Assembly (NCBI GenBank): GCA_963788145.1
Contig: CAWBFQ010000014.1
Span: forward strand, 86,954 to 150,953
Direction of reading: 5' to 3'
DNA from: an uncultured Chloroflexia bacterium
GTDB taxonomy: Bacteria; Chloroflexota; Anaerolineae; Anaerolineales; UBA4823
Length of the DNA stretch: 64,000 bases
Positions within the stretch are counted from its first letter, which is position 1. Each line of letters opens with the position of its first letter. Below the pieces are notes generated by a model that was given only the letters and a program-made list of their open reading frames with translations, searched no databases and was not told where the DNA came from. Made by a program: the position numbers and the translations under genes. This document shows positions 33,602 to 63,990 of this stretch, one piece after another.

Positions 33602-34489
33602 ATGAACGCAATAAAAAGCATGTACTCCCGCTTGCCAGATCAGGCCCGCAGCGCCATTCGTTCCGCTGTGCCCGATCCAGTATTGCGTTGGTATGCCCAC
33701 CGAAACACCGATGTTTACTTGATCTCTTATCCAAAATGCGGGCGGACGTGGCTGCGGTTGATGATCGGCCGGGCAATAGTCAGCCAATATGGGTTAGCGG
33801 AAAACGAGGATACGCTTTTCATTCACTGGAAACATCGCCCTCATCCCGCCGTCCCCAGGATCACCGTGATCCATGAAGATCGCCCGATGTTGAAGATCCC
33901 CGATGAGTTGGAAAGCTCTAAAGAGCGTTATCGATCCAAACGGATCATCTTTTTAGCGCGCGATCCGCGCGATGTGATTGTCTCCAGTTACTTTGAGATG
34001 AATAAACGCGGCCGGTTATTTGGTGAAAACCCATACGAAAAACACCAGGCGGTATTCGATGGCAGCCTGGCGGAATTTGTCCATCAGGAACGGGGTGGGT
34101 TCAACACTGTCTTGCGCTATTACAATATCTGGGCAGAAAACCGGAGCATCCCAGATGGATTCTTACTGGTTCGATATGAAGACTTGAGAAGCAATCCGCA
34201 GCCTGAGTTGCGCCGTGTGATCGACTTTCTGGGTCTCACTTCCATTCCAGACGCGATTTTAGCCCAGGCAGTGGAATATGCTTCTTTTGAGAATATGCGC
34301 AAGATGGAACAACAGAACACCTTCAGCAATGGGATTCTCAACCCGGCGAACCACAGTGACCAGGAATCATACAAAACTCGCAAAGGGAAAGTGAGAGGAT
34401 ATTTAGAATACCTGGAAGACGACGAGATTGAATATTTAAATATCCAAGTCCGACAAAATCTTTCTCCCATTTTTGGATATTCGGAATAA
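33602..34489 (+). CDS. sulfotransferase
   Basis: 5'-PSB-like YPKCGRTWLRLMIG and 3'-PB-like FLARDPRDVIVSSY PAPS-binding motifs. Confidence 0.8.
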   Translation: MNAIKSMYSRLPDQARSAIRSAVPDPVLRWYAHRNTDVYLISYPKCGRTWLRLMIGRAIVSQYGLAENEDTLFIHWKHRPHPAVPRITVIHEDRPMLKIPDELESSKERYRSKRIIFLARDPRDVIVSSYFEMNKRGRLFGENPYEKHQAVFDGSLAEFVHQERGGFNTVLRYYNIWAENRSIPDGFLLVRYEDLRSNPQPELRRVIDFLGLTSIPDAILAQAVEYASFENMRKMEQQNTFSNGILNPANHSDQESYKTRKGKVRGYLEYLEDDEIEYLNIQVRQNLSPIFGYSE

Positions 34490-34516
34490 TTTTTACATAC
34501 TACGTATAAGAGGACA

Positions 34517-35848
34517 ATGATTATGATGTCATCCAATGAAAAACAAAACCTTATCAGTCGATTTAGCAATCGATCTGCTCGGGTGGCCATCCTTGGCCTG
34601 GGTTATGTCGGGTTGCCGCTGGCAGTGGCGTTTGCCGAAGCGGGATTCAAGGTTGTCGGGATCGATCCGGATAAACGCAAAGTGGATACTATTGAGCGCG
34701 GCGAGAGTCATATTCAGGATATCCCCGGCGAACAGGTAGCTCGCCTGGTGAAAGCCGGGACGCTGAAGGCCACCACAGATTTTTCAGCCCTGAAAGAAGC
34801 GGACGCCGTCAGCATTTGTGTCCCTACACCGTTGCGCAAGACCGGCGATCCAGACCTTTCGTATATTTTGAGCGCCACCGAGCAACTGGCAAAATATGTT
34901 CACCCGAAAATGGTTGTGGTGCTCGAATCGACCACTTATCCGGGCACAACCCGCGAGATTCTGCTGCCCGAGTTGGGGGAAGATAAGGGGCTGAATGTGG
35001 GTGTGGATTTCTTCCTGGCCTTCTCACCTGAGCGGGTTGACCCGGGACGTGAGGACTGGACCACTCTAAATACGCCAAAAGTCATCGGCGGAATCACCCC
35101 GGCTTGCTCTGAAGTGGCTGCTGCCTGGTACGCTGAAGCGCTGAAGACCGTCGTGCCAGTTTCATCTGCCGAGGTGGCTGAGATGGCTAAACTTTTGGAA
35201 AACACCTTCCGCATGATCAATATCGGCCTGGTGAATGAGATGGCGATGATGTGCGAGAAATTGGGGGTGGATGTCTGGGAAGTGATCGACGCTGCTGCGA
35301 CCAAGCCGTTCGGCTTCATGAAATTCACACCCGGCCCAGGTCTGGGCGGCCATTGCATCCCGATCGATCCGCTTTATCTTTCCTGGAAACTACGCGCCCT
35401 GAACTACACTGCCCGCTTTATCGAGTTGGCCTCCGAGATCAATACCGGCATGCCGCGCTATGTGGTCGGTAAAGTGCAAGATGCGATGAATGACCAGGGC
35501 AAATCACTCAAGGGACACCGCGTTCTGGTATTGGGCGCAGCTTACAAACCCGATATCGATGATATCCGCAAATCGCCTTCGCTGGATGTGATCGGATTGT
35601 TGCAGCAGAAAGGCGCTGAGGTCTCTTATCATGATCCCTATATTTCAAGCTTGCGCCACGAGGGGCTGGAAATGGACAGCGTGCCGGATCTGATGGATGC
35701 GGTCCAGCAATCAGATTGTGTCGTGATCGTCACCAACCACAGTAATTACAATTACTCAGAGTTGCTGCAAAATGCCAGGCTGATCGTGGATACGCGCAAC
35801 GCGCTGGGCGCAGCCGGGCGCGACAACCCCAAAGTGATTCGCCTTTAG
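34517..35848 (+). CDS. nucleotide-sugar 6-dehydrogenase (UDP-N-acetylhexosamine dehydrogenase family, TviB/WecC/WbpA-like)
   Basis: ILGLGYVGLPLA NAD fold and the catalytic-Cys region GPGLGGHCIPIDP. 443 aa. Confidence 0.8.
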   Translation: MIMMSSNEKQNLISRFSNRSARVAILGLGYVGLPLAVAFAEAGFKVVGIDPDKRKVDTIERGESHIQDIPGEQVARLVKAGTLKATTDFSALKEADAVSICVPTPLRKTGDPDLSYILSATEQLAKYVHPKMVVVLESTTYPGTTREILLPELGEDKGLNVGVDFFLAFSPERVDPGREDWTTLNTPKVIGGITPACSEVAAAWYAEALKTVVPVSSAEVAEMAKLLENTFRMINIGLVNEMAMMCEKLGVDVWEVIDAAATKPFGFMKFTPGPGLGGHCIPIDPLYLSWKLRALNYTARFIELASEINTGMPRYVVGKVQDAMNDQGKSLKGHRVLVLGAAYKPDIDDIRKSPSLDVIGLLQQKGAEVSYHDPYISSLRHEGLEMDSVPDLMDAVQQSDCVVIVTNHSNYNYSELLQNARLIVDTRNALGAAGRDNPKVIRL

Positions 35849-35917
35849 GATGAATCGGAGACAGGACATCGCCGAGACTGGTTTCGGATGGGTGTCCTGT
35901 CTCCACTCGAGGAAAAT

Positions 35918-36910
35918 ATGTCAAATTATTTAGTCACCGGCGCAGCCGGTTTCATTGGCTCCCGGGTAGCAGCAATGCTGCTCGATAGTGGGCATACTGT
36001 GATAGGTATCGATAACATCAATGACGCCTACGATCTGCGCGTCAAATACTGGCGGTTGAACATCCTCAAAGACCGCCCCAATTTTCTCTTCCACCAGGTG
36101 GATATCAGCCAGCGAGATGGGTTGAATGATGTCAACAATGACAGCGCCGGGAAAAAAATCCAGATCGATGCAGTCATCAACCTGGCAGCCAGAGCCGGGG
36201 TACGTCCATCGGTACTCGATCCCTGGGTCTATTTCGAAACAAACCTGACCGGCACGCTGAACCTGCTGGAACTCTGCCGTCAGCAAGGTGTCCAAAAATT
36301 TATCCTGGCTTCCACATCCAGCATTTATGGCAATGACGCCCCGCTGCCTACGCCAGAAGACGCCAGCAGCGATTATCCCCTTCAACCTTACGCAGCCAGC
36401 AAGAAAGGCGCCGAAGCGCTATGCCATGCCTACCACTATCTGCATGGAATAGACACGACGATTTTCCGCTACTTCACTGTTTATGGCCCGGCTGGCCGCC
36501 CGGATATGTCGATGTTCCGGTTTACCCAATGGATTCGGGAGGGTAAGCCCGTCCGGTTGAACGGCGATGGCGAACAATCGCGCGGTTTCACGTATGTGGA
36601 TGACATCGCCCGCGGCACAATTCTCGGTCTACAGCCGTTGGGTTACGAAATTATTAATCTGGGGGGGCATGAGACCATCACGATCAATGAACTCATCCGT
36701 ATGATCGAAGCAAAGATAGGAAAGAAAGCCATCATCACGCAATTTCCGGCCGTACCGGCGGATATGCTGGCGAGTTGGGCGGATGTGACAAAAGCTGGCC
36801 GATTGCTTGGGTGGAAACCACAGGTCTCCCTTGCCGAAGGGATCTCAAATATGATCGAGTGGTATGAAAACGAGCGAAGCTGGGCAAGCCAGGTTGTCAC
36901 GGCTGCTTGA
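35918..36910 (+). CDS. NAD-dependent nucleotide-sugar 4-epimerase (TviC / UDP-glucuronate epimerase-like SDR)
   Basis: VTGAAGFIGS, the YAASK catalytic YxxxK motif, and FTVYGPAGRPDM. ATG 35918 lies within ORF 35888..36910. Confidence 0.8.
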   Translation: MSNYLVTGAAGFIGSRVAAMLLDSGHTVIGIDNINDAYDLRVKYWRLNILKDRPNFLFHQVDISQRDGLNDVNNDSAGKKIQIDAVINLAARAGVRPSVLDPWVYFETNLTGTLNLLELCRQQGVQKFILASTSSIYGNDAPLPTPEDASSDYPLQPYAASKKGAEALCHAYHYLHGIDTTIFRYFTVYGPAGRPDMSMFRFTQWIREGKPVRLNGDGEQSRGFTYVDDIARGTILGLQPLGYEIINLGGHETITINELIRMIEAKIGKKAIITQFPAVPADMLASWADVTKAGRLLGWKPQVSLAEGISNMIEWYENERSWASQVVTAA

Positions 36911-38318
36911 CCGGCTGTTCAAGAACGAGTTGGTCCGCCGGATGCTCAAAAATTCCGGCTACCTGTTCAGCAATACTGGAATCTCCGCAGTCGCCAGCAT
37001 GCTGCAAGGAATTTTGGCAGCGCGCCTGCTTGGGGCGACCGGCTTTGGCATTCTGGGGACCATTACTGTATTCACCAGTGTGGTGAATAACTTTGTTTCA
37101 TTTCGGATGGGTGAACTTGTGGTGAAGTATGTTGGCTACCACACCGAGCGTGATGATCCTCAATCTGCTGCGGCAGTCTTCAAGCTGGCCGCGCTGTTCG
37201 AGATGGTCGCTTCATTCTTTGCTTTTGGATTGATCGTCCTGCTGGCCCCAATAGGAGCGCAATATCTGGCAAAAGACCCTTCCGCTGCCCCTATGTTCAC
37301 TCTTTATGGACTGGTCATACTGGCGAACCTGATTGCAGAAAGCTCTACTGGCTTATTACAAATCTTTGATCGTTTTCGCCGTCTGGCAGGGTTAGGCATC
37401 ATCCAAAGTATGGTCACCCTGGCATTAATCAGCATCACATTCGTCTTGAAAGGCGGTCTGGCAGGCATTCTAAGCGCCTATTTAATCGGAAAAGCGATCG
37501 GAGCGATCGCGATCAGCGCGGCAGCCCTGATTGAAGCCGGGCGACGATGGGGCAGCGGCTGGGGGCATGTTTCGATTAGACGGTTGAACAGCATCGCGGG
37601 CGAAACAGAGGTAAGCCCTTCGTTCCTCGGGGCGGGTCTGGGTGAGTTAGCTCGTTTTGCTGTCAGCACGAACATCAGCGCCACAATCAGCCTGGTTACC
37701 AAAGACAGTGAATTATTGTGGGTCTCCCTGTTGCGCGGTCCTGGCGAAGCCGGCTATTACAAACTGGCTCTGGCTCTGGCTAATATGGTTCAAATGCCGA
37801 TCGAGCCGCTCCCGCAAGCCACCTACCCGGAATTATCAAGACAGGTCGCAAACCAGCGTTGGGGCAATGTCCGCTATATTCTCCGCCAGGGTTCCCGTCT
37901 GGCCGGGGCTTATTCCCTGTTCACCACCTTGTTCCTGGTTTTGTTCGGACAACTACTGATCCGCGTGCTTTATTCGCCCGTCTTCCTACCCAGCTACCCT
38001 GCGCTGATGATTCTGCTGGCGGGGTTGGTAGTCGCCAACACGTTTTATTGGCGCCGGGTTGCGCTGCTGGCATTGGGAAGAGCTGATTTCCCGGCTAAGG
38101 TCAACCTGGTACTGGCGATCTTCAAGGTTTCTGGCACGCTGGCTTTCGTCCCAAAATATGGTTATCTGGCCAGTGCGGCGCTGCTATCCGGTTTTTACTG
38201 GATTGGCTCGCTAATAACAGTATTAAAAGTCCGCGCCCTGGTCAGTCTGCGCGACCTGCAGGCTGGCGACCAGCCTCAAACCAGCCTTGATGAGCAAAGC
38301 ACCCATGGTGGGGCTTAG
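36864..38318 (+). CDS. polysaccharide flippase (MOP/Wzx family)
   Basis: About 12-14 TM helices with a length and layout typical of Wzx. The start is uncertain: ATG 36864 overlaps the epimerase gene by 47 nt, and the alternative is ATG 36942. Confidence 0.65.
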   Translation: MKTSEAGQARLSRLLDRLFKNELVRRMLKNSGYLFSNTGISAVASMLQGILAARLLGATGFGILGTITVFTSVVNNFVSFRMGELVVKYVGYHTERDDPQSAAAVFKLAALFEMVASFFAFGLIVLLAPIGAQYLAKDPSAAPMFTLYGLVILANLIAESSTGLLQIFDRFRRLAGLGIIQSMVTLALISITFVLKGGLAGILSAYLIGKAIGAIAISAAALIEAGRRWGSGWGHVSIRRLNSIAGETEVSPSFLGAGLGELARFAVSTNISATISLVTKDSELLWVSLLRGPGEAGYYKLALALANMVQMPIEPLPQATYPELSRQVANQRWGNVRYILRQGSRLAGAYSLFTTLFLVLFGQLLIRVLYSPVFLPSYPALMILLAGLVVANTFYWRRVALLALGRADFPAKVNLVLAIFKVSGTLAFVPKYGYLASAALLSGFYWIGSLITVLKVRALVSLRDLQAGDQPQTSLDEQSTHGGA

Positions 38319-38325
38319 GCGAAAC

Positions 38326-39621
38326 ATGCAAATCGCAATGATCGCTCCCAGCGAGATCCCGGCGCGGCGGGCCAACACGCTCCAGGTGATGAAGATGGCC
38401 CAGGCTTTGACCATTCTTGGCCATCAAGTACGCCTGGTCGCTCCCACAAGCCAACGCCCGCGCCGGAGCCTGGCAGAGGCAGCCTCCAGCGCGCCAGAAA
38501 GCAATCTTACCTGGGAAAGCTTGGCCCATCATTACGGGTTGCAACACCCATTCGAGGTCGCCTGGCAGTATTCCAACCCCAGCTTGAAGCGCTACGATTA
38601 CAGTTTATCGGCGGTGCATTGGGCGCAGCAAGCGAGCGAAGGACATCCGCTGGGCGCTGACCTGATCTATACCCGGTTACCCCAGGCGGCGGCCCTCTCC
38701 AGTTGGAAAGGGATTCCAACTATTTTTGAGATCCATGACTTACCCCAGGGGACGGTTGGTCCCTGGCTCTTTCGTCAGTTTTTAAAGGGCAAAGGCGCCT
38801 GTCGCCTGATAGTGATCACCCAGGCGCTGGCAAATGATCTGGAAAGGCTTTGGCCCTCCGCTCGCTCCTCGTTTGGGAACCTCAGCAAAACGGATACTGA
38901 CCCTTCGTCCCTCCAAGCAGGTCTGAAACAACAGATGATCATCGCACCAGATGGTGTAGACTTAGGGCGATATGCACACCTACCCGAACCCGAGCAAGCC
39001 CGCCGCATGATTGGCGAAACGAGTATCGCTGGCGAAACGAGTATCGCTGCACACCCGGCGGTTGATCGCTTCACAGCCGGCTACACCGGTCATCTCTACC
39101 CGGGTCGAGGCGGATCGCTGCTGCTCATACTGGCAGAGCGGATGCCGGAGATTTCCTTTCTCATTGTGGGTGGAGAACCAGCCGAAGCCGACTCCTTCAA
39201 GAGGGAGGCTGAGGCGCGTGGGTTGAAGAATCTTATCCTGACCGGATTTGTGCCCAACGCTGACTTACCGCTTTATCAATCAGCCTGTGATGTATTACTA
39301 ATGCCCTATCAGCAAAAGGTGGCGGCATCATCTGGCGGCGATATTGCCCGCTACCTCAGCCCGATGAAACTCTTTGAATACCTGGCCTGCCAAAGGGCAA
39401 TTATATCCAGCGATCTACCTGTATTGCGAGAGATATTAACTTCCGAGAATGCGATCCTGGTATCGCCAGATCAGCCAGAAGCCTGGGAGCAAGCGATCAA
39501 CACCCTCAAAACACACCCAGAATTGCGCGCCAGGCTTGCAAACCAGGCCCGGGCGGATGCTCATCAGTATACTTGGGAGGGACGCGCCCAACGAATCATC
39601 GAAGGATTGGATTTCAAATGA
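38326..39621 (+). CDS. family 4 glycosyltransferase
   Basis: MQIAMIAPSEIPARRANTLQV N-terminus and the C-terminal EX7E-type region SPMKLFEYLACQRAII. It contains the in-frame GETSIA duplication. Confidence 0.75.
   Translation: MQIAMIAPSEIPARRANTLQVMKMAQALTILGHQVRLVAPTSQRPRRSLAEAASSAPESNLTWESLAHHYGLQHPFEVAWQYSNPSLKRYDYSLSAVHWAQQASEGHPLGADLIYTRLPQAAALSSWKGIPTIFEIHDLPQGTVGPWLFRQFLKGKGACRLIVITQALANDLERLWPSARSSFGNLSKTDTDPSSLQAGLKQQMIIAPDGVDLGRYAHLPEPEQARRMIGETSIAGETSIAAHPAVDRFTAGYTGHLYPGRGGSLLLILAERMPEISFLIVGGEPAEADSFKREAEARGLKNLILTGFVPNADLPLYQSACDVLLMPYQQKVAASSGGDIARYLSPMKLFEYLACQRAIISSDLPVLREILTSENAILVSPDQPEAWEQAINTLKTHPELRARLANQARADAHQYTWEGRAQRIIEGLDFK
39013..39048 (+). repeat. perfect 18-bp tandem duplication (2 copies) inside the GT4 gene
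   Basis: GGCGAAACGAGTATCGCT x2, in frame, encoding GETSIA-GETSIA. Confidence 0.95.
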
Positions 39622-41486: not shown

Positions 41487-41661
41487 CAGCATCATGGATT
41501 TCGCTCACAGAACGAAATGGCAGTTTTTTAAGAAGAGCTGTAAGAGGCTCTATGGAACCAGATCGGCGATACGATTTTCGCAAGTATAATTGGCGGATAA
41601 AGGACATCCGGCGAACCGATTCTTTCCCTTAACCCATTCGGTCAGAACACAAGAAAATGAA

Positions 41662-45620: not shown

Positions 45621-45641
45621 TAAGAATGGGACCTTTTCAGC

Positions 45642-47772: not shown

Positions 47773-48267
47773 ATGATTACTAAACCGCTCTCTGACCGCG
47801 AGTTGATTCTGCTCGAGGAAATTGAACAAGACCCAGATATTACCCAGGCTTCACTGGCAGCCCAATTGGGCGTCGCAGTGGGTACCGTCAATTGGCATAT
47901 CAAACGCTTGATCTCCAAAGGATATGTCAAAGTGAAGCGCGCCCAGCGTCGAAAATTGCGGTATATTATCACCCCGGAAGGATTAGCGTTTCGAGCAGCC
48001 CTGGCTGTCAATTATCTTGAAACGTCGATGCGGATGTATCGCACCACTCGCCAGCGTGTGCGTGATCTGTTGATCCAAATCCATCAAGCCGGGTATAACC
48101 AGGTAATCATCGATGGAGATGGGGATATCGGCGATATCTGCCGGTTAACCTGCTTGGAACAAGGCATTCGGGTTGTGGATTCTAGCCAACAAAGGCAGAA
48201 CAAACCATTACCCACGCTGGAAGTGCGCGGCACAAAAATTCTCCTGCAATGGACTCGGGTTGAATAA
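47773..48267 (+). CDS. winged-helix transcriptional regulator with short Rossmann-like C-terminal domain
   Basis: N-terminal ITQASLAAQLGVAVGTVNWHIKRLISKGYV (HTH) and C-terminal VIIDGDGDIGD. It lies just upstream of wzm/wzt. Confidence 0.6.
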   Translation: MITKPLSDRELILLEEIEQDPDITQASLAAQLGVAVGTVNWHIKRLISKGYVKVKRAQRRKLRYIITPEGLAFRAALAVNYLETSMRMYRTTRQRVRDLLIQIHQAGYNQVIIDGDGDIGDICRLTCLEQGIRVVDSSQQRQNKPLPTLEVRGTKILLQWTRVE

Positions 48268-53278: not shown

Positions 53279-53312
53279 CGAGAATTGTACCAATGAGGCT
53301 GGTAAAGAAAAA

Positions 53313-54324: not shown

Positions 54325-54377
54325 ACGCGGCTTAATCATTAAGGCGATGATTCATATCGTAAACCGGAGGATGGGTC

Positions 54378-55367: not shown

Positions 55368-55401
55368 TCCAGCCCCAAACCGCAAAACCAGGAGCGCAAA
55401 A

Positions 55402-57686: not shown

Positions 57687-57693
57687 GAATCAA

Positions 57694-58630
57694 ATGAAAC
57701 ATACTATCGCCATCATCCAAGCCCGCATGAGCTCAAGTCGCCTGCCGGGTAAAGTGCTGCTTGAAATCACTGGTAAGCCAATGTTAAACCGGGTGATCGA
57801 GCGCGTTTGCCGGGCAGAGACCATCGATCAAGTGATCGTCGCAACGACCGATGATTCATCCGATAACCCGATCGCAGAACTATGCAAGAAAAGCGGTTAC
57901 CCATGTTATCGGGGCAGTATGCATGACGTGTTGGATCGCTATTATCAAACTGCGCGTCAGTACGATCCAGATTTGATTGTGCGCATCACTGCTGATTGTC
58001 CATTGATTGATCCACAGGTCATCGATCGCGCTGTATTGGCTTTCCTCGGCACAACTCAGCCGCAAGATTGCCTGCTGCATGGTGATCTCCAAAGACATGA
58101 AGACAGCCCAGATCTAAAATTTCCAGCGGATCCGAAACATCTCCTGGATGTTCTTTATCCGCCAGAGGGGCAATATCCGTATGACTTTGCGGCAAACCGC
58201 CTGCCGCCTCCGTGGGGACGCACGTATCCAATCGGCCTCGATACGGAAGTGTGTTCGTTTGAAGCGCTGGAAACGGCCTGGGAGGAAGCCCAGGAGCCAT
58301 ACCAGCGAGAGCATGTCATGCCGTTTTTCTATGATCATCTCGATCGTTTTCGAAGTCTTGCTCGTCCATAACGAGAAAGATTATGGAACCTTGCGTTGGA
58401 CGGTGGATACGCCGGAGGATCTTGAGCTGCTACGCCAGATCTATGCCCATTTCCCGGACCGAGATAATTTTTCCTGGCTGGAGGTGCTGGCCCTGTTCGA
58501 AAGCAACCCGGAGCTGGCTGACATCAATGCCCAGGTCCAGGCCAAGCATTACCGCCAGGTTGATGGCAGATATAAAACATCTGGCAGATACAAAACATCT
58601 GGCAGATACAAAACATCTGAGCGCAAATGA
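57694..58630 (+). CDS. cytidylyltransferase (SpsF / acylneuraminate cytidylyltransferase family), frame broken once at 58348-58351
   Basis: AIIQARMSSSRLPGKVL and REHVMPFFY lie in ORF 57676..58371. The continuation LLVHNEKDYGTLRWTVDTPEDLELLRQIY lies in ORF 58148..58630 and ends with the (GRYKTS)x3 repeat. Confidence 0.75.
58565..58618 (+). repeat. 18-bp tandem repeat, 3 copies, at the 3' end of the cytidylyltransferase gene
   Basis: GGCAGATA(T/C)AAAACATCT x3, in frame (GRYKTS x3), ending 10 nt before the stop codon and the ATG of the next gene. Confidence 0.95.
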
Positions 58631-59551
58631 CATTCCTGACGATTTTCTCTGCCCCAAAACCATTCACAAACCCTCATATTGCCGTCATCCAGCGCAATGC
58701 GATCCAATCCTGGCTGCACCTTGAAATGGGCAAAACCAGTTCCGCCCATTTCAAGCCCGAGGTGGATGTCTTTCTGGTAGGCGAGGAAGAAGGGATGCGT
58801 GAAGTTGCCTCCGAAAATTCGATCCCACTGCTGGCAAATGTCAGACGGAACGAATCCGGCACCCCTCTGGTCAGTTCGATATTCGATCTGGCTCGTCAGG
58901 CCAGCGATAGCCCTTATCTGGCTTATGTGAATGGCGATATCTTGCTGCTGCCGGATATCCTGCGGGCTATCCACCAAATAGCAGAAGAAATGACCAGGCA
59001 AACAGGCCGTCAATTCTTGCTGATTGGGCAGCGCTGGGATTTGGATGTGAAAGAATTGCTAGATTTCTCTCCCGGCTGGGCAGATCGTCTTCAGGCCATG
59101 GCGCGCGGCAAAGGCCGGCTTCACGCCCCAGCAGGCAGCGATTATTTTGTATTTCCACGTTCGGCTTTCAATGAGATGCCAGATTTTGCGATCGGGCGCG
59201 CTGGCTGGGATAACTGGATGATTTATCATGCCCGCCAACACGGTTGGCCGGTAATCGATGGCACACCTGCGCTGATGGTGATCCACCAGAGCCACGATTA
59301 TAGTCATCTACCCGGTGGCTCGTCCCCATTATGACCTGGCCGAAAGCCAGCATAATATGCAGATGGGCGGCGGGCTGAAGCATATGTATATGGTGCTCGA
59401 CGCCGACCACCAGTTACGCAATGGCAAAATTGTTCGGCCGCGTTTCACCTGGCTGCGCTTCATCCGTTATTTCGAGGTTAAATTGATGCCGGAAAGCGGC
59501 GAACTTCGTGCGGCTGCGCGGCCGAGCTCACTCGCCGTCTGCGTAAACTGA
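58627..59551 (+). CDS. hypothetical protein, glycosyltransferase-like, frame broken once (59315-59326)
   Basis: ORFs 58627..59334 and 59315..59551 join (…HQSHDYSHLPGG | HYDLAESQHNMQMGGGL…). YVNGDILLLPD and AGSDYFVFPR suggest a GT-A-like fold. The family was not recognised. Confidence 0.4.
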
Positions 59552-59581
59552 GGCGAAAACTGGGAAGAAGAATCATGACGG

Positions 59582-60706
59582 TTGTACATCATCCAACCCG
59601 TGTTGGGATCAATCCAGCCCGCAGCCAGTCAACCATCCATCGTCCAGCCCGCCGTCACAGTCGCAGTGCTCACTTACATCCCTTCCCTGGACCGGCTATT
59701 TTGAACACCGCCTGGATGTGCTGAAATTGGTCCTGGCCAGCCTGAACGCTCATACCACACTCCCACACGATCTGTTCATTTTCGATAATGGCAGCTGCGA
59801 GTCTGTCGTCGATTACCTGGTTGCACTCGCCATGCCGGCCAGTCGATGACTTGCTGCTCTCGCAGCGCAACATCGGCAAGATCGACGCCCTGCGCATCCT
59901 TTTCAACGCCGCTCCGGGCGAGATCATCGCATATAACGATGACGATATTTTTTTCTACCCCGGTTGGCTGGAAGCTCATCTGGAAATCCTGGATAGCTTC
60001 CCAAAGGCTGGCATGGTCAGCGGCGCTGCCGGTGCGCAATGCTGCCAGGCATGCCAACCAGAGCCTGGAGCGCCTGGCTGCAGAGATAAAACATCTGAGC
60101 GAACCCGCCGAACGGGATTGCTTCGTTCCTCGCAATGACATCGTCGCAGGATTGAGCCTCGCGTGAGCGCCAATCCCGAGATGAATGGGAAGCCGACTGG
60201 GCTGCCAGCACCGGGCGTGACCTGTGAAACATTTACAGGCCACCCGCGACCAACTGGATTTGGTTTTTCGGCTTGGAACCTGCGCGAGATGGCCGCAACT
60301 CAAAACAGGTGCTTTTGTCGAAGCAATCGGCGCAGCCAATCACTTCCAGTTCGTTACCCCCAAAAAGATCATTCTGCAGGCCCTGCCATCCGAATGGACA
60401 GGCAAATTGATGGGTTCGATGATCGAGCTGGACCAGGCAATCGACGATCTGGGTTATCTGCGTCTATCCACCGTTCAGCGCTACACCCGCCACCTGGGTA
60501 ACACCCTAGTCTGATGAAATCCGCAGGAAGCCGATCAGATGGGGCTTTCGGAACAAATTTCGGCGCTGGAAGGATACAGCCAAACAGCGCCTGGATCTGC
60601 AGTGAGGTCAAAAAGTCGCAAGAAGCATTGGCTCTTGAAAATCCCTGGCAGCCGGCGGGTATTCCTGGCGATCTATAAACGCCTGTTCAACATTCTTTAT
60701 AGCTGA
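59582..60706 (+). pseudogene. family 2 glycosyltransferase, reading frame broken at least 5 times
   Basis: GT2 motifs can be followed only by hopping +1 each time: VTVAVLTYIPSLD | GYFEHRLDVLK...LFIFDNGSCESVVDYL | VDDLLLSQRNIGK...AYNDDDIFFYPGWLE | PVRNAARHANQSLERL... | ERQSRDEWEADW... | ...GAFVEAIGAANHFQFV...RYTRHLGNTLV. Coding-like signal continues to 60706. The start is uncertain. Confidence 0.6.
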
Positions 60707-60753
60707 ACTCAATTATATGACCGACTTATCGTTCCCCTAAAACCGGTCCCAAA

Positions 60754-61809
60754 TTGGATGAAATCCGCGGAGACGCATATTTTGCCCTTCGTAATCATCC
60801 CATCTTCATCTGCGGTCACCCCAAATCTGGGACCAGTCTGGTGAGGGCCATCTTCGATTCGCATCCACAACTGGTGGTGTACCCGGAGGAGACGGTTTTC
60901 TTCCGACGCTATCTTCCGCAGGCTGCCGGGTTGGACCAACAGGCGCAACTTGCCCTGGCCGAACGCTTGCTCATCCACATCTTCCGCTGGAACAGCACAA
61001 ACCCGGTCCCCGACCAGCAAGGTTATCCCGACCGGGATTACTCCGCCATCTCCTACGAAGAAATTCGCCTGAAGATGTGGGAGATCGCTGCCGAAACCAG
61101 CCCTGACGGCCAAGATAATCACCACCCCGGAGATATTCTCAGCGCCGCGGTGCTGGCTTATGGAGAGGTTCGGGGGCAGGTCGGCTCACAAACCCGGCAG
61201 GTGTGGGCAAACAACATGCGTTGGTGGGTTGAGAAATCCCCTTACAATGAATATTACGCCGATCAGATCTTTAACTGGTGGCCGGATGCTCGCTGCATTC
61301 ATATTCTGCGTGACCCGCGCGACAATTTTGCATCCTACAGCCGCAAGCACCCGGACTGGAGCCCAGAGTTCTTCGCCGCCAATTGGGCTCGTTCCACCCA
61401 GGCTGGCAAGGATAACCTGGCTCGTTATGGGGAAGGGCGCTATCACATCTTGCGCTATGAGGACCTTGTTCACGATCCAGACAATCGGCTGCGAGCATTG
61501 GCGGCGTTTCTCGGAATCGATTGGAACGCCTCGCTGATTGCGCCCACTCGCGCCGGAGCGCAGTGGAGCGGCAACTCGATGTTCGCCAACCAGTTCGAAC
61601 AAATCAGCGCCGCTCCGGTCGCCCGCTGGAAGGAAAAGCTCGCACATACCGACGCGGCTGTGATCGAGTTAATCACACAGCCGCTGCTGACAGATTACGG
61701 CTATTCGCCCATAGCGCTCACCCAGAGCGGCCTGGCGTCCAAACTTGCAGCCAGGCTACGCGTGTTCACCTGGCCAATCCGGCGCAGGCTTTTCGGGACA
61801 CAGAAGTAA
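60754..61809 (+). CDS. sulfotransferase
   Basis: FICGHPKSGTSLV (5'-PSB) and HILRDPRDNFASY (3'-PB) motifs. TTG start. Confidence 0.8.
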   Translation: MDEIRGDAYFALRNHPIFICGHPKSGTSLVRAIFDSHPQLVVYPEETVFFRRYLPQAAGLDQQAQLALAERLLIHIFRWNSTNPVPDQQGYPDRDYSAISYEEIRLKMWEIAAETSPDGQDNHHPGDILSAAVLAYGEVRGQVGSQTRQVWANNMRWWVEKSPYNEYYADQIFNWWPDARCIHILRDPRDNFASYSRKHPDWSPEFFAANWARSTQAGKDNLARYGEGRYHILRYEDLVHDPDNRLRALAAFLGIDWNASLIAPTRAGAQWSGNSMFANQFEQISAAPVARWKEKLAHTDAAVIELITQPLLTDYGYSPIALTQSGLASKLAARLRVFTWPIRRRLFGTQK

Positions 61810-61857
61810 TTCAAACCGGTTACATGGCCAGCAATAAATTATGTAAGAAACCTATCA

Positions 61858-62988
61858 ATGCCAAACCCATCCAAACAAAGCTCCTCATCCGAAATTAGTT
61901 TTGGCCAACGCCTGAAACTGGCCTATCGCGCCTTGCGTGGGATGGATATTTCCCAATCCGCCCACCGAAAAATCCCGGCAAAACCAGTTCCACCCATTTC
62001 GCCAGACGAAGTCGCTGAAGCGAAGACCTTCTTCCCAATGGAGAAATTCTTCATTTTTGGGCATGCCCGCTCAGGCACAACCATGCTGACCCGCTTGATC
62101 CGCTTGCATCCGGAAGTGCACTGCAATTACCAGGCTCATTTTTTCACCCGACAGCCATTGCTGGAATCGCTTGTCACCAGCGTGGAGGTTGGCGAGTGGT
62201 TGAGCCGCAACAGCAACCGCTGGAACCGGGGTAAAGATCTCTCTCCGATAGTGTTGAGGACTGTGGCAGATTTCATTCTGGAGCGAGACGCCCGCCGGGA
62301 GGGCAAGCATATCGTTGGCGACAAAAGCCCCAACAGCCTGTTGGACGGCGAGGCAGTCCGCCTGCTGTCGAAAGTATATCCGGACGCAGCCCTGATTTAC
62401 ATCGTCCGGGATGGACGCGACGCAGCCATTTCACACCGATTTCAAGCCTTCATCGACAAGCCACAATATCTCGACCGGGAGGACCTGCGCATCCGAGCAG
62501 AATTCTCGCAGACGCCCACGCCTTTCCTGAATGGGGAACGCTCGATTTTCAGCGAGCATGGACTGCGCCAGGCTGCCGAAGGTTGGGTCCGCAATGTGCT
62601 CGAAACAAATCAAATGGGGCAAGAGTTGTATGGTGAACGCTACCTGTCGCTGCGTTATGAAGACTTGCTTGAAAATCCCTGGGAACAGATGCTGCGCCTG
62701 TGGCGATTTTTGGGGGCTGATCCAGAAGACGACAAATTGCACACCGCCCTGCAATCCGAAATGATGAGCAATCCAGACGCCGAATGGCAGCAACAAAAAG
62801 CCAGGGATATTGCCCAACCTCTGCAAAAAGGGAAGCGCGGCGGTTGGCAGGAGATACTGACCGAACGCGATCGGCGCGTGTTCCTGGAAATTGCATCAGA
62901 TTCGCTTTCAGACTGGGGCTATCCACTGGATTCGAAATATCCTTCAGACAATAACGCGGCAGGAGCCATAAGAGCAACGCCATCATGA
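61858..62988 (+). CDS. sulfotransferase
   Basis: FIFGHARSGTTML (5'-PSB) and YIVRDGRDAAISH (3'-PB) motifs. Confidence 0.8.
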   Translation: MPNPSKQSSSSEISFGQRLKLAYRALRGMDISQSAHRKIPAKPVPPISPDEVAEAKTFFPMEKFFIFGHARSGTTMLTRLIRLHPEVHCNYQAHFFTRQPLLESLVTSVEVGEWLSRNSNRWNRGKDLSPIVLRTVADFILERDARREGKHIVGDKSPNSLLDGEAVRLLSKVYPDAALIYIVRDGRDAAISHRFQAFIDKPQYLDREDLRIRAEFSQTPTPFLNGERSIFSEHGLRQAAEGWVRNVLETNQMGQELYGERYLSLRYEDLLENPWEQMLRLWRFLGADPEDDKLHTALQSEMMSNPDAEWQQQKARDIAQPLQKGKRGGWQEILTERDRRVFLEIASDSLSDWGYPLDSKYPSDNNAAGAIRATPS

Positions 62989-63990
62989 AGATCTTAATCG
63001 CTGGGCTTGGTTCCATCGGTCGTCGGCATCTGCGCAACTTACTGACCCTGGGCGAGAGCGACCTGGTGCTATTCCGATCCAGAAATAACCAAGAAACAGA
63101 TGGCGAGTTGACCGGCTTCCCGGTAGAGACGAATCTGGAGGCGGCTCTGGCGCACGGACCTCAGGCGGTGGTTATCTCTAACCCGACCGCTCTCCATCTT
63201 GATGTAGCCATTCCAGCCGCTCAGGCGGGATGCCACCTGTTGCTGGAGAAACCCATCTCGCACACATTGGATCGTCTGCCCGAATTGCAGGCCGCGCTGG
63301 AAGAAAACCACAGCCAGGCGCTGATTGGCTATCATTTTCGATTTCATCCCGGCCTGGAACGTTTGAAAGATCACCTGGAGAGCGGGGTGATCGGACGCCC
63401 GATCTCCGTCCGGGCTCATTGGGGTGAATATCTGCCCGGATGGCATCCCTGGGAAGACTACCGCCAGGGTTACAGCGCCCGATCAGACCTGGGAGGTGGG
63501 GTCATTCTAACCCTCAGCCACCCGCTGGATTATTTACGCTGGCTTTTTGGAGATGTCCAATCCGTTTGGGCGTTCAGCGGCAAGCTGAGCGATCTGGAGC
63601 TACAGGTCGAAGATACTGCAGAAATTGGCCTTCGCTTCACCACAGGCATGCTGGGAAGCCTGCATCTGGATTACAACCAACAGCCCGCATCCCACCATCT
63701 GGAAATCATCGGGACGCGGTGGAACGATGCGATGGGAAAATACCAGTGGGACTGTAAGAATATTCCAGACCGGTTCCAACCAGTGGTTGGAAGAGTCTCT
63801 TCCAGCGGATTGTCTTGATCCACAGGGTTTTGAAAGGAACTACCTTTTTTTGAGCGAGATGCGCCATTTCCTGCAGGTCTGCCGCAGGGAAGCCAATCCC
63901 CGCTGTAATTTTCAAGACGGGAAGCTGGCTCTAGAGTTGGCATTAGCCGCGCTGGAATCACAGGAGCAGGGCAAACTGATTGAATTCTAA
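62985..63990 (+). CDS. Gfo/Idh/MocA family oxidoreductase, frame broken once at about 63720
   Basis: MKILIAGLGSIGRRH and LLEKP lie in ORF 62985..63818. The continuation GTMRWENTSGTV...FLSEMRHFLQ lies in ORF 63625..63990. ATGA overlap with the upstream sulfotransferase gene. Confidence 0.75.

Follow-up and report, generated by a model that had tools for sequence, protein, structure and literature searches.

A conserved, operon-like envelope glycan locus in an uncultured Anaerolineales bacterium predicted to combine sulfation with an atypical pathway for a sialic-acid-like sugar

Gene content and arrangement of the locus

The stretch of DNA analyzed here (the window) is 64,000 nucleotides long and comes from an uncultured Anaerolineales bacterium of the Chloroflexota. 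Its 30-kb region from 33602 to 63990 is an operon-like cell-surface or cell-envelope glycan locus. Once fragmented open reading frames (ORFs) are merged, the region contains 25 genes, every one on the plus strand; an initial annotation had the strand right but counted about 27 genes. The start-stop overlaps that it described are real, with ATGA or TAATG at 39618, 50606, 52358, 56469, 58627, and 62985; genes also overlap by 11 nt at 42656, 43668, and 57676. Families were assigned by Pfam and NCBIfam profile searches, with NCBIfam equivalog cutoffs applied, and every gene family in the initial list was recovered at the position given for it. As claimed, both a Wzx flippase and a Wzm/Wzt exporter are encoded (Polysacc_synt; ABC2_membrane; ABC_tran plus Wzt_C), together with two Glycos_transf_1 (GT4) proteins, two Glycos_transf_2 (GT2) proteins, and a Methyltransf_11 methyltransferase. 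No initiating phosphoglycosyltransferase and no recognizable polymerase were found in the locus. The NeuB-family synthase, the reductase, the cytidylyltransferase, the dehydrogenase, and the first GT2 protein all scored below equivalog cutoffs, so their substrates are guesses. The genes are described below as three modules, A (33.6 to 41.5 kb), B (41.6 to 47.7 kb), and C (47.8 to 64 kb and beyond).

Membrane and sugar nucleotide genes of modules A and B

The nucleotide-sugar 6-dehydrogenase of module A (34517 to 35848) has all three UDPG_MGDP_dh domains, passes TIGR03026 (466 bits), and is closest to the WecC/TviB type, with subcutoff scores of 295 and 284 bits for WecC-type models and 212 bits for TviB. 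An SDR nucleotide-sugar epimerase/dehydratase follows (35888 to 36910; Pfam Epimerase, 190 bits), and its scores for GalE and RmlB (about 160 bits) and TviC (106 bits) are likewise below cutoffs. The suggestion that these genes supply hexosaminuronic acid is plausible, given the best-scoring dehydrogenase models, but every equivalog cutoff was missed. The Wzx-type flippase (36864 to 38318; Polysacc_synt, 64 bits; about 11 transmembrane segments) probably starts at 36942 and is 63% identical to its ortholog in the related locus L001. Next come GT4a (38287 to 39621; Glycos_transf_1, 63 bits, plus Glyco_transf_4) and M637 (39618 to 41486), a 637-amino-acid polytopic protein with about 10 transmembrane segments. 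M637 has no Pfam or NCBIfam match, is unrelated to the profile of M694 (below), and is kept beside Wzx and GT4a in relatives. It is a candidate polymerase, ligase, or GT-C glycosyltransferase.

Module B begins with GT2a (41590 to 42666; Glycos_transf_2, 110 bits), a polyprenyl-phosphate glycosyltransferase of the ArnC/GtrB/PgfS-like kind with two C-terminal transmembrane helices and subcutoff ArnC (226 bits) and PgfS (165 bits) scores. The adjacent flippase-like membrane protein (42656 to 43678) belongs to LPG_synthase_TM (PF03706, 122 bits) and exceeds the TIGR00374 cutoff (65 versus 43.2 bits). M650 (43668 to 45620; 650 amino acids, about nine transmembrane segments) matched no family in Pfam or NCBIfam searches and is 40% identical to its L001 ortholog. 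M694 (45642 to 47726; 694 amino acids) represents a Chloroflexota-specific family and models as a GT-C-fold membrane glycosyltransferase. Its AlphaFold2 model, built from 37 sequences, reached a pLDDT of 89.4 and a pTM of 0.91, and the top Foldseek matches in the PDB were all GT-C enzymes (AftA, E value 4e-6; AglB, STT3, ArnT, PglB, and ALG9). Residue D132, in an FDDY loop, is invariant. The initial annotation had grouped a polyprenyl-phosphate GT2 with three giant membrane proteins; the GT-C model gives that grouping substance for M694, while the other two are without a family match.

Sulfotransferases and PAPS synthase

Three sulfotransferases with intact PAPS-binding motifs had been reported, and the profile matches and motifs agree. 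ST1 (33602 to 34489; Sulfotransfer_1, 90.5 bits) opens the locus as a cytoplasmic PAPS-type enzyme, and ST2 (60754 to 61809; Sulfotransfer_3, 119 bits) and ST3 (61858 to 62988; Sulfotransfer_3, 88 bits; Sulfotransfer_1, 63 bits) lie near its end. The 5'-PSB motif reads PKCGRTW, PKSGTS, and ARSGTT in ST1, ST2, and ST3, respectively, and the 3'-PB motif reads RDPRD..S in the first two and RDGRD..S in ST3. None of the three has a transmembrane segment. They share only 23 to 27% identity with one another, and ST2 is weakly similar to NoeE. As the enzymes are soluble and carry PAPS-binding motifs, sulfation would have to precede export.

The window ends with a gene for a Gfo/Idh/MocA oxidoreductase (62985 to 63990; GFO_IDH_MocA domains; one +1 frameshift near 63716). 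No PAPS synthase gene is visible inside the 64-kb window. A PAPS synthase, encoded as a fusion of PUA_2, ATP-sulfurylase, and APS-kinase domains and confirmed with Pfam in L002, directly follows the Gfo/Idh/MocA gene in four relatives. It accompanies the sulfotransferase pair in all four of these loci (L002, L003, L083, and L084), and the pair and the synthase are jointly missing from both L004 and L085. Because of this co-occurrence, a dedicated sulfation function encoded by the locus is strongly supported by gene content, and the earlier sulfation claim gains strength from three distinct PAPS-type enzymes and their neighbor in relatives.

Export, capping, and nonulosonate genes of module C

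Module C starts with a MarR/HTH_24 winged-helix regulator (47773 to 48267; HTH_24, 54 bits), found at the same position in L001, L003 to L006, and L083 to L085. The ABC-2 permease Wzm (48376 to 49257; ABC2_membrane, 73 bits) is followed by the ABC ATPase Wzt (49271 to 50613), whose C-terminal domain is of the carbohydrate-binding kind. Against its L001 and L002 orthologs, Wzt reads in frames 2, 3, and then 1 owing to +1 frameshifts near 49582 and 50340; with two bases removed it matches Wzt_C (32.5 bits; threshold, 30.4) as well as ABC_tran (82 bits).

The next gene (50606 to 52361; one +1 frameshift near 51427) occupies two ORFs here and is intact in relatives, where the protein has 540 to 609 amino acids. 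It encodes a KpsC/KpsS/WbbB-like GT-B protein and candidate CMP-ulosonate transferase. An AlphaFold2 model of an 84%-identical ortholog (pLDDT 86.8) has the GT-B fold, with structural matches to WecB/NeuC epimerases, WbbB, KpsC, and TagF, KpsC and WbbB being among the best. All 35 family members compared match Capsule_synth below threshold; the earlier "Capsule_synth-like" label is partly supported, as a distant relation to KpsC/WbbB. The family has an invariant RIHPGER motif and weakly matches the BFO_1060 NulO-transferase family, and one homolog (P0286) is fused to a methyltransferase. This protein could instead be a missing epimerase or hydrolase, as its best Foldseek E values were to UDP-GlcNAc 2-epimerases rather than to KpsC. 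Its neighbor, with an ATGA overlap, is a SAM-dependent methyltransferase (52358 to 53278; Methyltransf_11, 59 bits).

PseB, a UDP-GlcNAc inverting 4,6-dehydratase (53313 to 54324), has its Polysacc_synt_2 domain split over two ORFs by a +1 frameshift near 53994. The frame-corrected protein scores 494 bits against the PseB equivalog TIGR03589 (cutoff, 408) and is 88 to 95% identical to its orthologs. An RmlD-like SDR and candidate C4 ketoreductase (54378 to 55367; RmlD_sub_bind, 172 bits; rmlD equivalog, 167 bits, below 224) stands between PseB and NeuB in every relative examined. The NeuB-family nonulosonate synthase (55402 to 56469; NeuB, 224 bits, plus SAF) scores 258 bits for NeuB_NnaB (cutoff, 400) and 236 bits for PseI (cutoff, 340). 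GT4b (56448 or 56469 to 57686; Glycos_transf_1, 97 bits) precedes the CTP_transf_3 cytidylyltransferase (57676 to 58630; 121 to 123 bits; one +1 frameshift near 58353). The latter falls below the KdsB and PseF cutoffs and has "Cytidylyltransferase" 6oew as its best PDB match (142 bits). An 18-bp sequence is tandemly repeated three times at the 3' end of this gene. Relatives carry a second CTP_transf_3 gene (with Hydrolase_3) downstream, and either cytidylyltransferase may serve NeuB.

U328 (58627 to 59571; frameshifts near 59315 and 59510) has no Pfam match and is 65 to 85% identical to an intact 328-amino-acid protein of L002. GT2b (59540 to 60706) has about eight frame disruptions and matches the 373-amino-acid L002 GT2 (Glycos_transf_2, 40 bits) piecewise in all three frames.

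Frame disruptions

In all, about 18 single-base frame disruptions occur, 15 of them +1 insertions: about 16 lie in seven of the 25 locus genes (Wzt, the Capsule_synth-like gene, PseB, the cytidylyltransferase, U328, the second GT2, and Gfo/Idh/MocA, which reads in frames 3 and then 1 against L002) and two in uvrD. The initial annotation overlooked these broken ORFs. In its present form, the sequence cannot express these seven genes. The disruptions are probably errors made in assembling the long metagenomic source contig of 318 kb, since they are mostly +1, no large deletions occur, and the orthologs are all intact. They cluster at 49.5 to 63.8 kb and in uvrD, and the rest of the coding sequence, about 47 kb, has none, a pattern that does not match the prediction of uniform sequencing error. 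Gene decay is nevertheless the less likely explanation, as large deletions are absent, every ortholog is intact, the housekeeping gene uvrD is affected too, and removal of one base restores full-length, high-scoring proteins.

Conservation in relatives

The comparison of synteny with relatives that had been proposed showed that many uncultured Anaerolineales share the locus, with its genes in collinear order. At least 12 metagenome contigs have the left-half order uvrD-tsaE-tsaB-GNAT-UDG-ST1-DH-Epim-Wzx-GT4-M637-GT2-LPGTM-M650, in which ST1 sits between UDG and the dehydrogenase gene; in L043 and L045, ST1 is still linked to the locus, though at a changed position. The right-half order recurs in seven relatives, and L002, L003, L083, and L084 share the order HTH-(Epim)-Wzm-Wzt-Kps-like-MTase-PseB-reductase-NeuB-GT4-CMP-T-U328-GT2-ST-ST-GFO-PAPS synthase-SDR. 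L001 is collinear with the window locus from Wzx through NeuB. More than 100 Anaerolineales proteins are NeuB orthologs with 83 to 93% identity, from metagenome-assembled genomes named Anaerolineales or Chloroflexota, in keeping with an Anaerolineales origin of the window. Since the same order recurs across these relatives, the gene grouping is not due to chance.

However, relatives differ independently in modules A, B, and C, including the Wzx and GT-C blocks, and in the sulfation cassette. Wzx is absent nearby in L005, and L004 and L085 lack the sulfation cassette but keep the core. Because of this independent variation, the union of carboxylate, nonulosonate, and sulfate on a single glycan, as first envisaged, is a possibility rather than a finding.

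Proposed functions and comparison with known systems

On balance, we favor a reading in which three linked modules form a conserved, operon-like envelope glycan locus with artefactual frameshifts. Starting from the observed family and fold assignments, synteny, and co-occurrence of the sulfotransferase pair with PAPS synthase, we infer substrates, an order of steps, a capping role, and modules that may act on one glycan. Module A would make and flip a lipid-linked, uronate-containing unit, possibly sulfated. In module B, GT2a would charge polyprenyl phosphate with a sugar, the LPG_synthase_TM protein would flip it, and M694, perhaps with M650, would transfer the sugar to an acceptor external to the membrane. 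Module C would be an ABC-transporter-dependent pathway, with a lipid-linked chain assembled in the cytoplasm by the GT4, the GT2, and U328. There, ST2 and ST3 would attach sulfate to this chain, drawing PAPS from the synthase that relatives encode just beyond the point where the window ends. The Kps-like GT-B enzyme, here taken as a transferase, and the adjacent methyltransferase may add a terminal cap. The product would leave through Wzm/Wzt, and the C-terminal domain of Wzt would recognize the capped chain.

Sulfation genes are combined in the locus with an unusual pathway predicted for a sialic-acid-like sugar. PseB, the RmlD-like 4-reductase, the NeuB synthase, and the cytidylyltransferase would supply a CMP-activated nonulosonate. 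The earlier nonulosonate claim stands at the family level (NeuB plus SAF, CTP_transf_3, and the PseB equivalog) but not as a canonical pathway, given the subcutoff NeuB scores and the lack of an aminotransferase. By PDB sequences, the synthase is about equidistant from SpsE, NeuB, and PseI, and the cytidylyltransferase looks SpsF-like by eye. The scanned ORFs of the window and the relatives' flanks yielded no aminotransferase; PseH/LegH-type acetyltransferase, PseG, and NeuC genes were likewise not seen in the window or those flanks, and no UDP-sugar hydrolase or hydrolyzing 2-epimerase (PseG/NeuC) was identified in the locus. The module therefore differs from the canonical Neu, Pse, and Leg routes. 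The combination of PseB and a 4-reductase without an aminotransferase points to a nonulosonate that is 7-hydroxy and 9-deoxy, in the simplest case of the 5-acetamido-7-hydroxy-9-deoxy (3,5,9-trideoxy) type. A natural precedent for this proposal is the O-chain of F. nucleatum 25586, in which, according to the account of Vinogradov 2017 cited in PMC7371886, 6-deoxy-L-AltNAc and a 3,5,9-trideoxy nonulosonate co-occur.

Gene content and organization of the locus

All credible genes from 33602 to the window edge are encoded on the plus strand, as the initial annotation had stated, although its count of about 27 genes falls to 25 once the fragments of split genes are merged. Each gene family that it had named was recovered in profile searches with Pfam and NCBIfam models, with the exception of Capsule_synth, for which the match fell below the cut-off. 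The overlapping start and stop codons are likewise present across the locus, as ATGA or TAATG junctions at 39618, 50606, 52358, 56469, 58627, and 62985; additional 11-base overlaps occur at 42656, 43668, and 57676. Such frequent overlaps are as expected of translationally coupled operon genes. A promoter and terminator scan of 46 to 64 kb gave counts within shuffle expectation, and no initiating phosphoglycosyltransferase is encoded within the locus.

Module A (33.6 to 41.5 kb) starts with a sulfotransferase, ST1, and continues with a nucleotide-sugar dehydrogenase having all three domains (34517-35848), an SDR epimerase (35888-36910), a Wzx-type flippase of the Polysacc_synt family with about 11 hydrophobic segments (36864-38318), the GT4 glycosyltransferase GT4a (38287-39621), and a large membrane protein, M637. 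Module B (41.6 to 47.7 kb) encodes the GT2 glycosyltransferase GT2a (41590-42666; 110 bits), a flippase-like LPG_synthase_TM protein (42656-43678), and two further large membrane proteins, M650 and M694. Module C (47.8 to 64 kb) opens with a MarR/HTH_24 regulator (47773-48267), followed by the ABC-2 permease Wzm (48376-49257), the ABC ATPase Wzt (49271-50613), a Kps-like 587-amino-acid (aa) protein (50606-52361), a Methyltransf_11 enzyme (52358-53278), and the nonulosonate genes, among which a second GT4 enzyme, GT4b, is found (56469-57686). The module ends with a conserved 328-aa protein, U328, a second GT2 enzyme, GT2b (about 59.5 to 60.7 kb), the sulfotransferases ST2 and ST3, and a Gfo/Idh/MocA oxidoreductase, GFO (62985-63990). 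Both export systems that had been reported, a Wzx-like flippase and a Wzm/Wzt exporter, are encoded. The Wzx protein scored 63.8 bits (cut-off, 28.2), Wzm matched ABC2_membrane with 73 bits, and the frame-corrected Wzt matched ABC_tran with 82 bits and Wzt_C with 32.5 bits (cut-off, 30.4).

Elsewhere in the window, and unrelated to the glycan locus, a minus-strand gene at 15975-17075 encodes a baeRF_family10 protein, which resembles archaeo-eukaryotic release factors (141 bits). It is accompanied by two-component GAF/PAS histidine kinases at 17.3 to 27.5 kb.

Predicted functions of the membrane proteins and the 587-aa protein

Neither M694 nor the 587-aa protein, nor the profiles made from them, gave a significant sequence match in the PDB, and only fold comparison was informative. 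M694 also lacked any Pfam or NCBIfam match; its 262 homologs are all annotated as hypothetical, and those with a named source among the matches listed are restricted to Chloroflexota. An AlphaFold2 model built from 37 sequences reached a pLDDT of 89.4 and a pTM of 0.91. In Foldseek, the top 16 matches were all GT-C enzymes, including AftA, AglB, STT3, ArnT, PglB, DPY19, ALG9, and EmbB, with a probability of 1.0 for most (0.72 to 0.99 for three) and TM scores of 0.3 to 0.44. An aspartate, D132, is invariant in an FDDY loop. On the basis of this model, M694 is predicted to be a GT-C membrane glycosyltransferase. GT2a has two C-terminal transmembrane helices and scored 226 bits with the ArnC model (cut-off, 529) and 165 bits with PgfS (cut-off, 500). 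Together, GT2a, the TIGR00374 flippase-like protein, and M694 would fit a three-component system for glycosylation outside the membrane. The proposal of a polyprenyl-phosphate GT2 with three giant membrane proteins is supported for one of the three, M694, through its modeled fold; GT2a is a candidate for the polyprenyl-phosphate enzyme, and M650 and M637 have no assigned family. Both are polytopic, and M637, M650, and U328, with their orthologs, had no match at relaxed Pfam thresholds. The idea that M650 and M637 are remote paralogues of M694 was dropped, as BLAST and hhalign detected no relation.

The 587-aa protein belongs to a family of more than 4,000 proteins, the named matches being from Anaerolineales or Chloroflexota. 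A model of an 84% identical ortholog showed a GT-B fold (pLDDT, 86.8). In Foldseek, UDP-GlcNAc 2-epimerases gave the best E values; the best superpositions were with KpsC (TM score, 0.49 to 0.53; 6mgb, 6mgd, and 8fux) and WbbB (0.43; 8csb), and TagF was matched as well. The window protein itself had no match to Capsule_synth (PF05159) at an E value of ≤0.1, and the ortholog P0241 scored 12.4 bits against a cut-off of 20. Subthreshold Capsule_synth matches were obtained for 35 of 35 aligned members (best E value, 8.8e-6), compared with 6 of 35 for Epimerase_2. The earlier label of a Capsule_synth-like protein describes a remote similarity, below the Pfam gathering cut-off. An RIHPGER motif is invariant in the family, the region around its HP motif has a weak match to the BFO_1060 family (20 bits; cut-off, 200), and one homolog carries a fused methyltransferase domain. 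In light of the structural matches and these features, we favor the 587-aa protein as a candidate CMP-ulosonate transferase working with the adjacent methyltransferase; an epimerase or a hydrolase is possible.

Sulfation genes

ST1 (33602-34489) belongs to Sulfotransfer_1, and ST2 (60754-61809) and ST3 (61858-62988) belong to Sulfotransfer_3. As previously claimed, there are three sulfotransferases with intact PAPS-binding motifs. All score above their Pfam cut-offs, with 90.5 bits for ST1 (cut-off, 22), 118.9 for ST2 (27), and 87.9 for ST3 (27), and each has both the 5′ and 3′ motifs: PKCGRTW and RDPRDVIVS in ST1, PKSGTS and RDPRDNFAS in ST2, and ARSGTT and RDGRDAAIS in ST3. None has a membrane segment. 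Pairwise identities of 23 to 27% indicate three distinct sulfotransferases rather than recent copies, and similarity to NoeE is weak (32 and 28 bits; cut-off, 500).

In four related loci (L002, L003, L083, and L084), the gene directly after GFO encodes a PUA_2/ATP-sulfurylase/APS_kinase fusion, confirmed with Pfam, that is, a PAPS synthase; further downstream in relatives are an SDR gene and then a second CTP_transf_3 gene. The window ends 10 bases past the GFO stop codon, so a PAPS synthase in this position would be beyond view. In two other related loci, L004 and L085, the core is kept, but neither the sulfotransferase pair nor the PAPS synthase is present. The co-presence in four of four loci and co-absence in two of two are good evidence that the ST2-ST3 pair and the PAPS synthase form a dedicated, accessory sulfation cassette, as judged from gene content. 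At the usual site of the sulfotransferase pair, L004 (16728-18191) encodes a 487-aa protein with a weak TagF-like match (Glyphos_transf; E value, 0.008). A phosphodiester-type substituent may replace sulfate as the anionic decoration in that locus.

Conservation of the locus among Anaerolineales

More than 100 homologs share 83 to 93% identity with the NeuB-family protein, and every one with a named source is from Anaerolineales or Chloroflexota. A cyanobacterial origin was considered and rejected, since the window contains just 6 copies of HIP1 (GCGATCGC) and every homolog with a named source comes from Anaerolineales or Chloroflexota.

Comparison with related genomes showed that the order of the locus is conserved and its genes are not scattered. 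A metagenome scan with ST1 found the left half, uvrD-tsaE-tsaB-GNAT-UDG-ST1-dehydrogenase-epimerase-Wzx-GT4-M637-GT2-flippase-like-M650, in at least 12 contigs, in an order identical to that of the window at 28.7 to 45.6 kb. In two more distant loci, L043 and L045, ST1 lies between GT4 and M637, inverted but still within the locus. For the right half, L002 is collinear with 49.3 to 64 kb at 65 to 95% identity, and L003, L083, and L084 have the same order as L002. L001, from an Anaerolineaceae metagenome-assembled genome, is collinear from Wzx through NeuB and was the only locus found in a scan of GTDB genomes with M694 (41% identity).

The housekeeping block uvrD-tsaE-tsaB-GNAT (rimI-like)-UDG, at 28742-33579, lies directly upstream on the same strand and is kept in at least 12 contigs (among L009 to L056). 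From this conservation, the left boundary of the locus, a 22-bp gap between UDG and ST1, appears to be ancient in the clade. In L005 (GCA_016926415.1, 1-4668), the region to the left of the GT-C block encodes, on the opposite strand, a divergent set that comprises another LPG_synthase_TM protein along with a GT1 and a further two Sulfotransfer_1 proteins, and the Wzx/dehydrogenase block is absent there.

One glycan or several

The biological product of the locus may be predicted from its gene content, on which our interpretation rests entirely, although the sequence as given has broken genes. In the proposed mechanism, the GT4 and GT2 enzymes and U328 would build a lipid-linked chain in the cytoplasm. 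A CMP-activated nonulosonate would be incorporated into or capped onto the chain by the KpsC-like enzyme, and the chain would be methylated. ST2 and ST3, and also ST1, would sulfate the chain while it faces the cytoplasm; sulfation is placed before export because PAPS and soluble sulfotransferases are cytoplasmic. Wzm/Wzt would then export the chain, with Wzt_C reading its terminus. Hexosaminuronic acid would come from the dehydrogenase and epimerase, a second lipid-linked unit would be processed by Wzx, GT4a, and M637, and the addition of a sugar on the outer side of the membrane would fall to GT2a, the flippase-like protein, and M694.

The initial annotation had predicted one strongly polyanionic glycan. 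Candidate genes for each of its components are present, but a single product is not supported to the same degree: the modules vary independently among relatives, in both presence and arrangement, and they may or may not converge on one polymer. It is a distinct possibility, falling only somewhat short of an even chance, that the locus directs the synthesis of two or three unconnected glycoconjugates, with genes that simply lie side by side, for example, a Wzx-dependent uronate polymer, a GT-C decoration or protein or lipid glycosylation, and an ABC-exported capped polymer. Two export routes next to a polyprenyl-phosphate-sugar/GT-C system would suit such a division, as would the regulator gene between modules B and C. 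Among relatives, the GT-C block of L005 has no adjacent Wzx, module C of L004 and L085 occurs without sulfation, and module A is rearranged in L043 and L045. However, the genes are tightly codirectional and overlap at their stop and start codons even from one module to the next, many Anaerolineales keep the A-B-C order, and both A and C include sulfotransferases. Moreover, the polymer modified by a three-component system of the Gtr, Arn, or Pgf type is usually the product of adjacent genes, which would favor a common product.

Proposed biosynthesis of a nonulosonic acid

The PseB-like gene (Polysacc_synt_2; 53313-54324), an open reading frame (ORF) that is split in the window as given, scored 494 bits after frame correction, above the equivalog cut-off of 407.75. 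It is followed by an RmlD_sub_bind reductase (54378-55367) with a score under the RmlD cut-off, and by NeuB (55402-56469), which has a TIM-barrel domain (PF03102; 224 bits) and a C-terminal SAF domain (PF08666; 32 bits). NeuB scored below the equivalog cut-offs of both TIGR03569 (258 bits; cut-off, 399.65) and the PseI model TIGR03586 (236 bits; cut-off, 340.25) and is roughly equidistant from the SpsE, NeuB, and PseI structures in the PDB. For the cytidylyltransferase (CTP_transf_3; 57676-58630), matches to the KdsB and PseF models are confined to the N-terminal half. The reported PseB-, NeuB-, and CMP-transferase-like genes are thus present as families, PseB even as an equivalog, but an equivalog-level assignment of NeuB or PseI failed at both cut-offs.

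The scanned ORFs of the window and the flanking regions of seven related loci yielded neither an aminotransferase nor a Pse/Leg acetyltransferase, PseG, or NeuC, and the gene tables of L002 to L005 and L083 to L085 list no aminotransferase or PseG-type domain; the sole GNAT gene (32238-32822) belongs to the conserved tsaE-tsaB-GNAT housekeeping block. A canonical Pse, Leg, or Neu pathway, which lacks these enzymes here, was therefore set aside as the simplest reading. The order PseB-reductase-NeuB is invariant among relatives, and we infer that the simplest chemistry would be as follows. The 4-keto product of PseB would be reduced rather than aminated, yielding UDP-6-deoxy-L-AltNAc or an epimer, and the 6-deoxy sugar, after its release, would be condensed with phosphoenolpyruvate (PEP) to a 5-acetamido-3,5,9-trideoxy nonulosonate.

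We know of no gene-to-product link for the trideoxy nonulosonate of Fusobacterium nucleatum. In PMC7371886, the O-chain of F. nucleatum 25586 is described as containing 6-deoxy-L-AltNAc and 5-acetimidoylamino-3,5,9-trideoxy-non-2-ulosonic acid (Vinogradov 2017), the latter as the single reported natural example. Both sugars of this O-chain would be expected if the PseB 4-keto intermediate were reduced and then condensed with PEP. We advance, as a tentative and rather doubtful proposal, that PseB, the RmlD-like 4-reductase, the divergent NeuB, and the SpsF-like cytidylyltransferase form an undescribed route to a 7-hydroxy, 9-deoxy (3,5,9-trideoxy) nonulosonate, with capping by the KpsC/WbbB relative and the methyltransferase, PAPS-fed cytoplasmic sulfation, and Wzm/Wzt export.

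A somewhat unlikely alternative is that PseB and the reductase make a UDP-6-deoxy-L-hexosamine, in the manner of WbvB/WbvR or FnlA/FnlB, that goes straight into the chain while NeuB acts on another substrate. The dehydratase and 4-reductase logic for 6-deoxy-L-HexNAc sugars was reportedly established by Kneidinger in 2003. Within the locus, we identified no hydrolase for releasing the sugar to NeuB, and in relatives a second cytidylyltransferase is joined to, or lies beside, a HAD phosphatase. One possibility would be a Kdn- or Neu-type 9-phosphate route through the downstream CTP_transf_3-Hydrolase_3 genes of relatives. However, no enzyme supplying ManNAc or mannose-6-phosphate is encoded in the locus, PseB, reductase, and NeuB keep their order, and F. 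nucleatum contains both 6-deoxy-L-AltNAc and the trideoxy nonulosonate, an indication that the two uses can coexist.

It is fairly unlikely that the nonulosonate is ordinary pseudaminic or legionaminic acid, with the aminotransferase, N-acetyltransferase, and UDP-sugar hydrolase encoded at another place in the genome and a role for the RmlD-like reductase in making another sugar. PseB does pass its equivalog cut-off, NeuB is similar to SpsE, NeuB, and PseI, and our inspection covered 64 kb here and 10 kb to either side in relatives. Against this, NeuB lies under both the PseI and the NeuB/LegI cut-offs, Pse and Leg genes are normally clustered and yet no DegT-type aminotransferase occurs in the window or any of the seven related loci, and the adjacency of PseB, reductase, and NeuB is invariant.

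Beyond the PAPS synthase and SDR genes, the second CTP_transf_3 gene was located at 20834-21074 in L004, 20283-21068 in L085, and about 20940-21068 in L083 and L084; its product in L004 and L085 carries a fused Hydrolase_3 domain, which resembles the KdsC and Kdn-9-phosphate phosphatases. It hints at a further ulosonic acid activation just outside the window, and the downstream cytidylyltransferase-phosphatase of relatives could serve NeuB instead. The 3′ end of the cytidylyltransferase gene in the window contains a perfect-looking 18-bp tandem repeat (TGGCAGATACAAAACATC, 3.1 copies; 58564-58619). It encodes GRYKTS three times, directly before the stop codon and the ATGA junction to the following gene. 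The alignment with the L002 cytidylyltransferase ends at 58561, immediately upstream, and the repeat region appears to be absent there.

Frame disruptions in the window

The initial annotation had overlooked split genes. There are about 18 frame disruptions in total, affecting uvrD and seven genes of the locus. Wzt has two (49582 and 50340), the 587-aa gene (51427), PseB (53994), the cytidylyltransferase (58353), and GFO (63716) have one each, U328 has two (59315 and 59510), and GT2b has about eight, at 59.6 to 60.55 kb. Just upstream of the locus, the uvrD/pcrA helicase gene (28742-30945) is divided into three ORFs by two +1 frameshifts (at about 29951 and about 30660-30750), whereas one uninterrupted ORF of about 774 aa encodes the ortholog in the related contig L009. 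About 16 disruptions thus fall within 49.5 to 63.8 kb, eight of them inside the 1.1-kb GT2b gene, and none was found in the ORFs tested at 0 to 28.7 kb or at 31 to 49.3 kb, which had full domain coverage. Single-base +1 insertions account for 15 of the approximately 18 events, and there are no large deletions. The three sites inspected lie outside long homopolymers (C5, AA, and AA). Removal of single bases restores full-length, well-scoring proteins, such as the PseB equivalog and a Wzt with complete ABC_tran and Wzt_C domains. In-frame stops occur only in GT2b, where a pair of neighboring codons at about 60.5 kb is best attributed to a paired +1/-1 shift. The orthologs in relatives are all intact.

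We consider the disruptions to be probably assembly errors in a 318-kb metagenomic contig, which may cluster where strains differ. The splitting of uvrD, a housekeeping gene, supports assembly error for the indels of the window; with uniform error, however, the uneven clustering would not be predicted, and real decay is retained as a rival for that reason. Were the indels real, the split uvrD would be a mutator lesion. That module C (49.5 to 64 kb) consists of decaying pseudogenes, possibly helped by a broken uvrD/pcrA mutator, so that the glycan is made by relatives but not here, would agree with the density of disruptions in 14 kb of module C, the intact coding sequence to the left, the three-piece uvrD, and the position of the inspected indels outside long homopolymers, but it is improbable, given that bacterial gene decay is biased toward deletions and the events here toward insertions, that large deletions are absent and the sole stops are better explained by a paired shift, that correct-frame identity to L002 (65 to 95%) equals that of intact neighbors, that NeuB, the reductase, the methyltransferase, GT4b, ST2, ST3, and Wzm are intact between the broken genes, and that strain-variable glycan loci are presumably typical sites of consensus error in metagenome assemblies.

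Comparison with known systems

Each component of the locus is of a known kind. A literature search found no published description of this locus or of any nonulosonate or sulfation locus in Chloroflexota. Sulfated bacterial glycans are rare, with the genetics known for very few systems, and this locus offers a compact, conserved gene set, with three sulfotransferases and, in relatives, a co-varying PAPS synthase, in a phylum with hardly any studies of its envelope chemistry. PseB, 4-reductase, and NeuB without an aminotransferase may be the missing biosynthetic route to trideoxy nonulosonates. Two protein families without a Pfam model, the M694 GT-C proteins and the KpsC-like proteins of about 550 aa, each number in the hundreds to thousands. 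Anaerobic digesters, granular sludge, and sediments harbor abundant Anaerolineales. In granular-sludge extracellular polymeric substances (EPS), nonulosonic acids and sulfated glycoconjugates have been measured, sulfotransferases were not found by BLAST, and the pathways were called unknown (PMC10483923). If our reading is correct, Anaerolineales would be a genetic source of these "sialylated and sulfated" EPS polymers.

The xss cluster, which directs synthesis of synechan in Synechocystis PCC 6803, reportedly relies on Wzx/Wzy for export and lacks a nonulosonate module, and we know of no PAPS synthase there. It resembles the present locus in having sulfotransferases inside a polysaccharide locus with Wzx-type machinery and a dedicated regulator (PMC8205485). 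The hosts differ, xss being cyanobacterial and the present locus belonging to Chloroflexota.

The O-glycan of Tannerella forsythia contains, among its sugars, a methylated one. It carries a terminal Pse or Leg derivative on ManNAcA, attached by the nonulosonate transferase BFO_1060/Tanf_01245, whose family has HP and D/E-D/E-G motifs (PMC5420450). The likeness lies in the use of a GT-B enzyme bearing an HP motif for nonulosonate transfer, a role that is predicted for the 587-aa protein here, and in hexosaminuronic acid within the same glycan. In contrast to the present locus, the Pse/Leg pathways of T. forsythia are complete, aminotransferases included, and sulfation is absent there.

Module B resembles GtrA/GtrB/GtrC, ArnC/ArnT, and PgfS/PgfM of Streptococcus mutans in combining a GT2 with C-terminal transmembrane helices, a small flippase-like protein, and a GT-C enzyme. 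It differs in that the flippase-like protein is of the LPG_synthase_TM/TIGR00374 type rather than GtrA, Pfam offers no model for the GT-C family, and two extra large membrane proteins are present.

Module C is most readily compared with ABC-dependent pathways in which the chain is terminated by a cap that is read by the C-terminal domain of Wzt, as in Escherichia coli O9a (WbdD/Wzt) and Klebsiella O12/Raoultella (the WbbB β-Kdo cap). The slg cluster of Geobacillus stearothermophilus likewise makes an ABC-dependent S-layer glycan, with a methyltransferase, WsaE. To our knowledge, the Chloroflexota studied so far lack LPS. The present locus shares with the capped pathways Wzm and a Wzt bearing Wzt_C, a methyltransferase beside a GT-B protein resembling CMP-Kdo transferases, the supply of a CMP-ulosonate alongside, and a predicted cytoplasmic assembly. 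It differs from them in its NeuB-type C9 sugar in place of Kdo, in its only remote relation to KpsC, and in the sulfotransferases of the locus and the PAPS synthase of its relatives.
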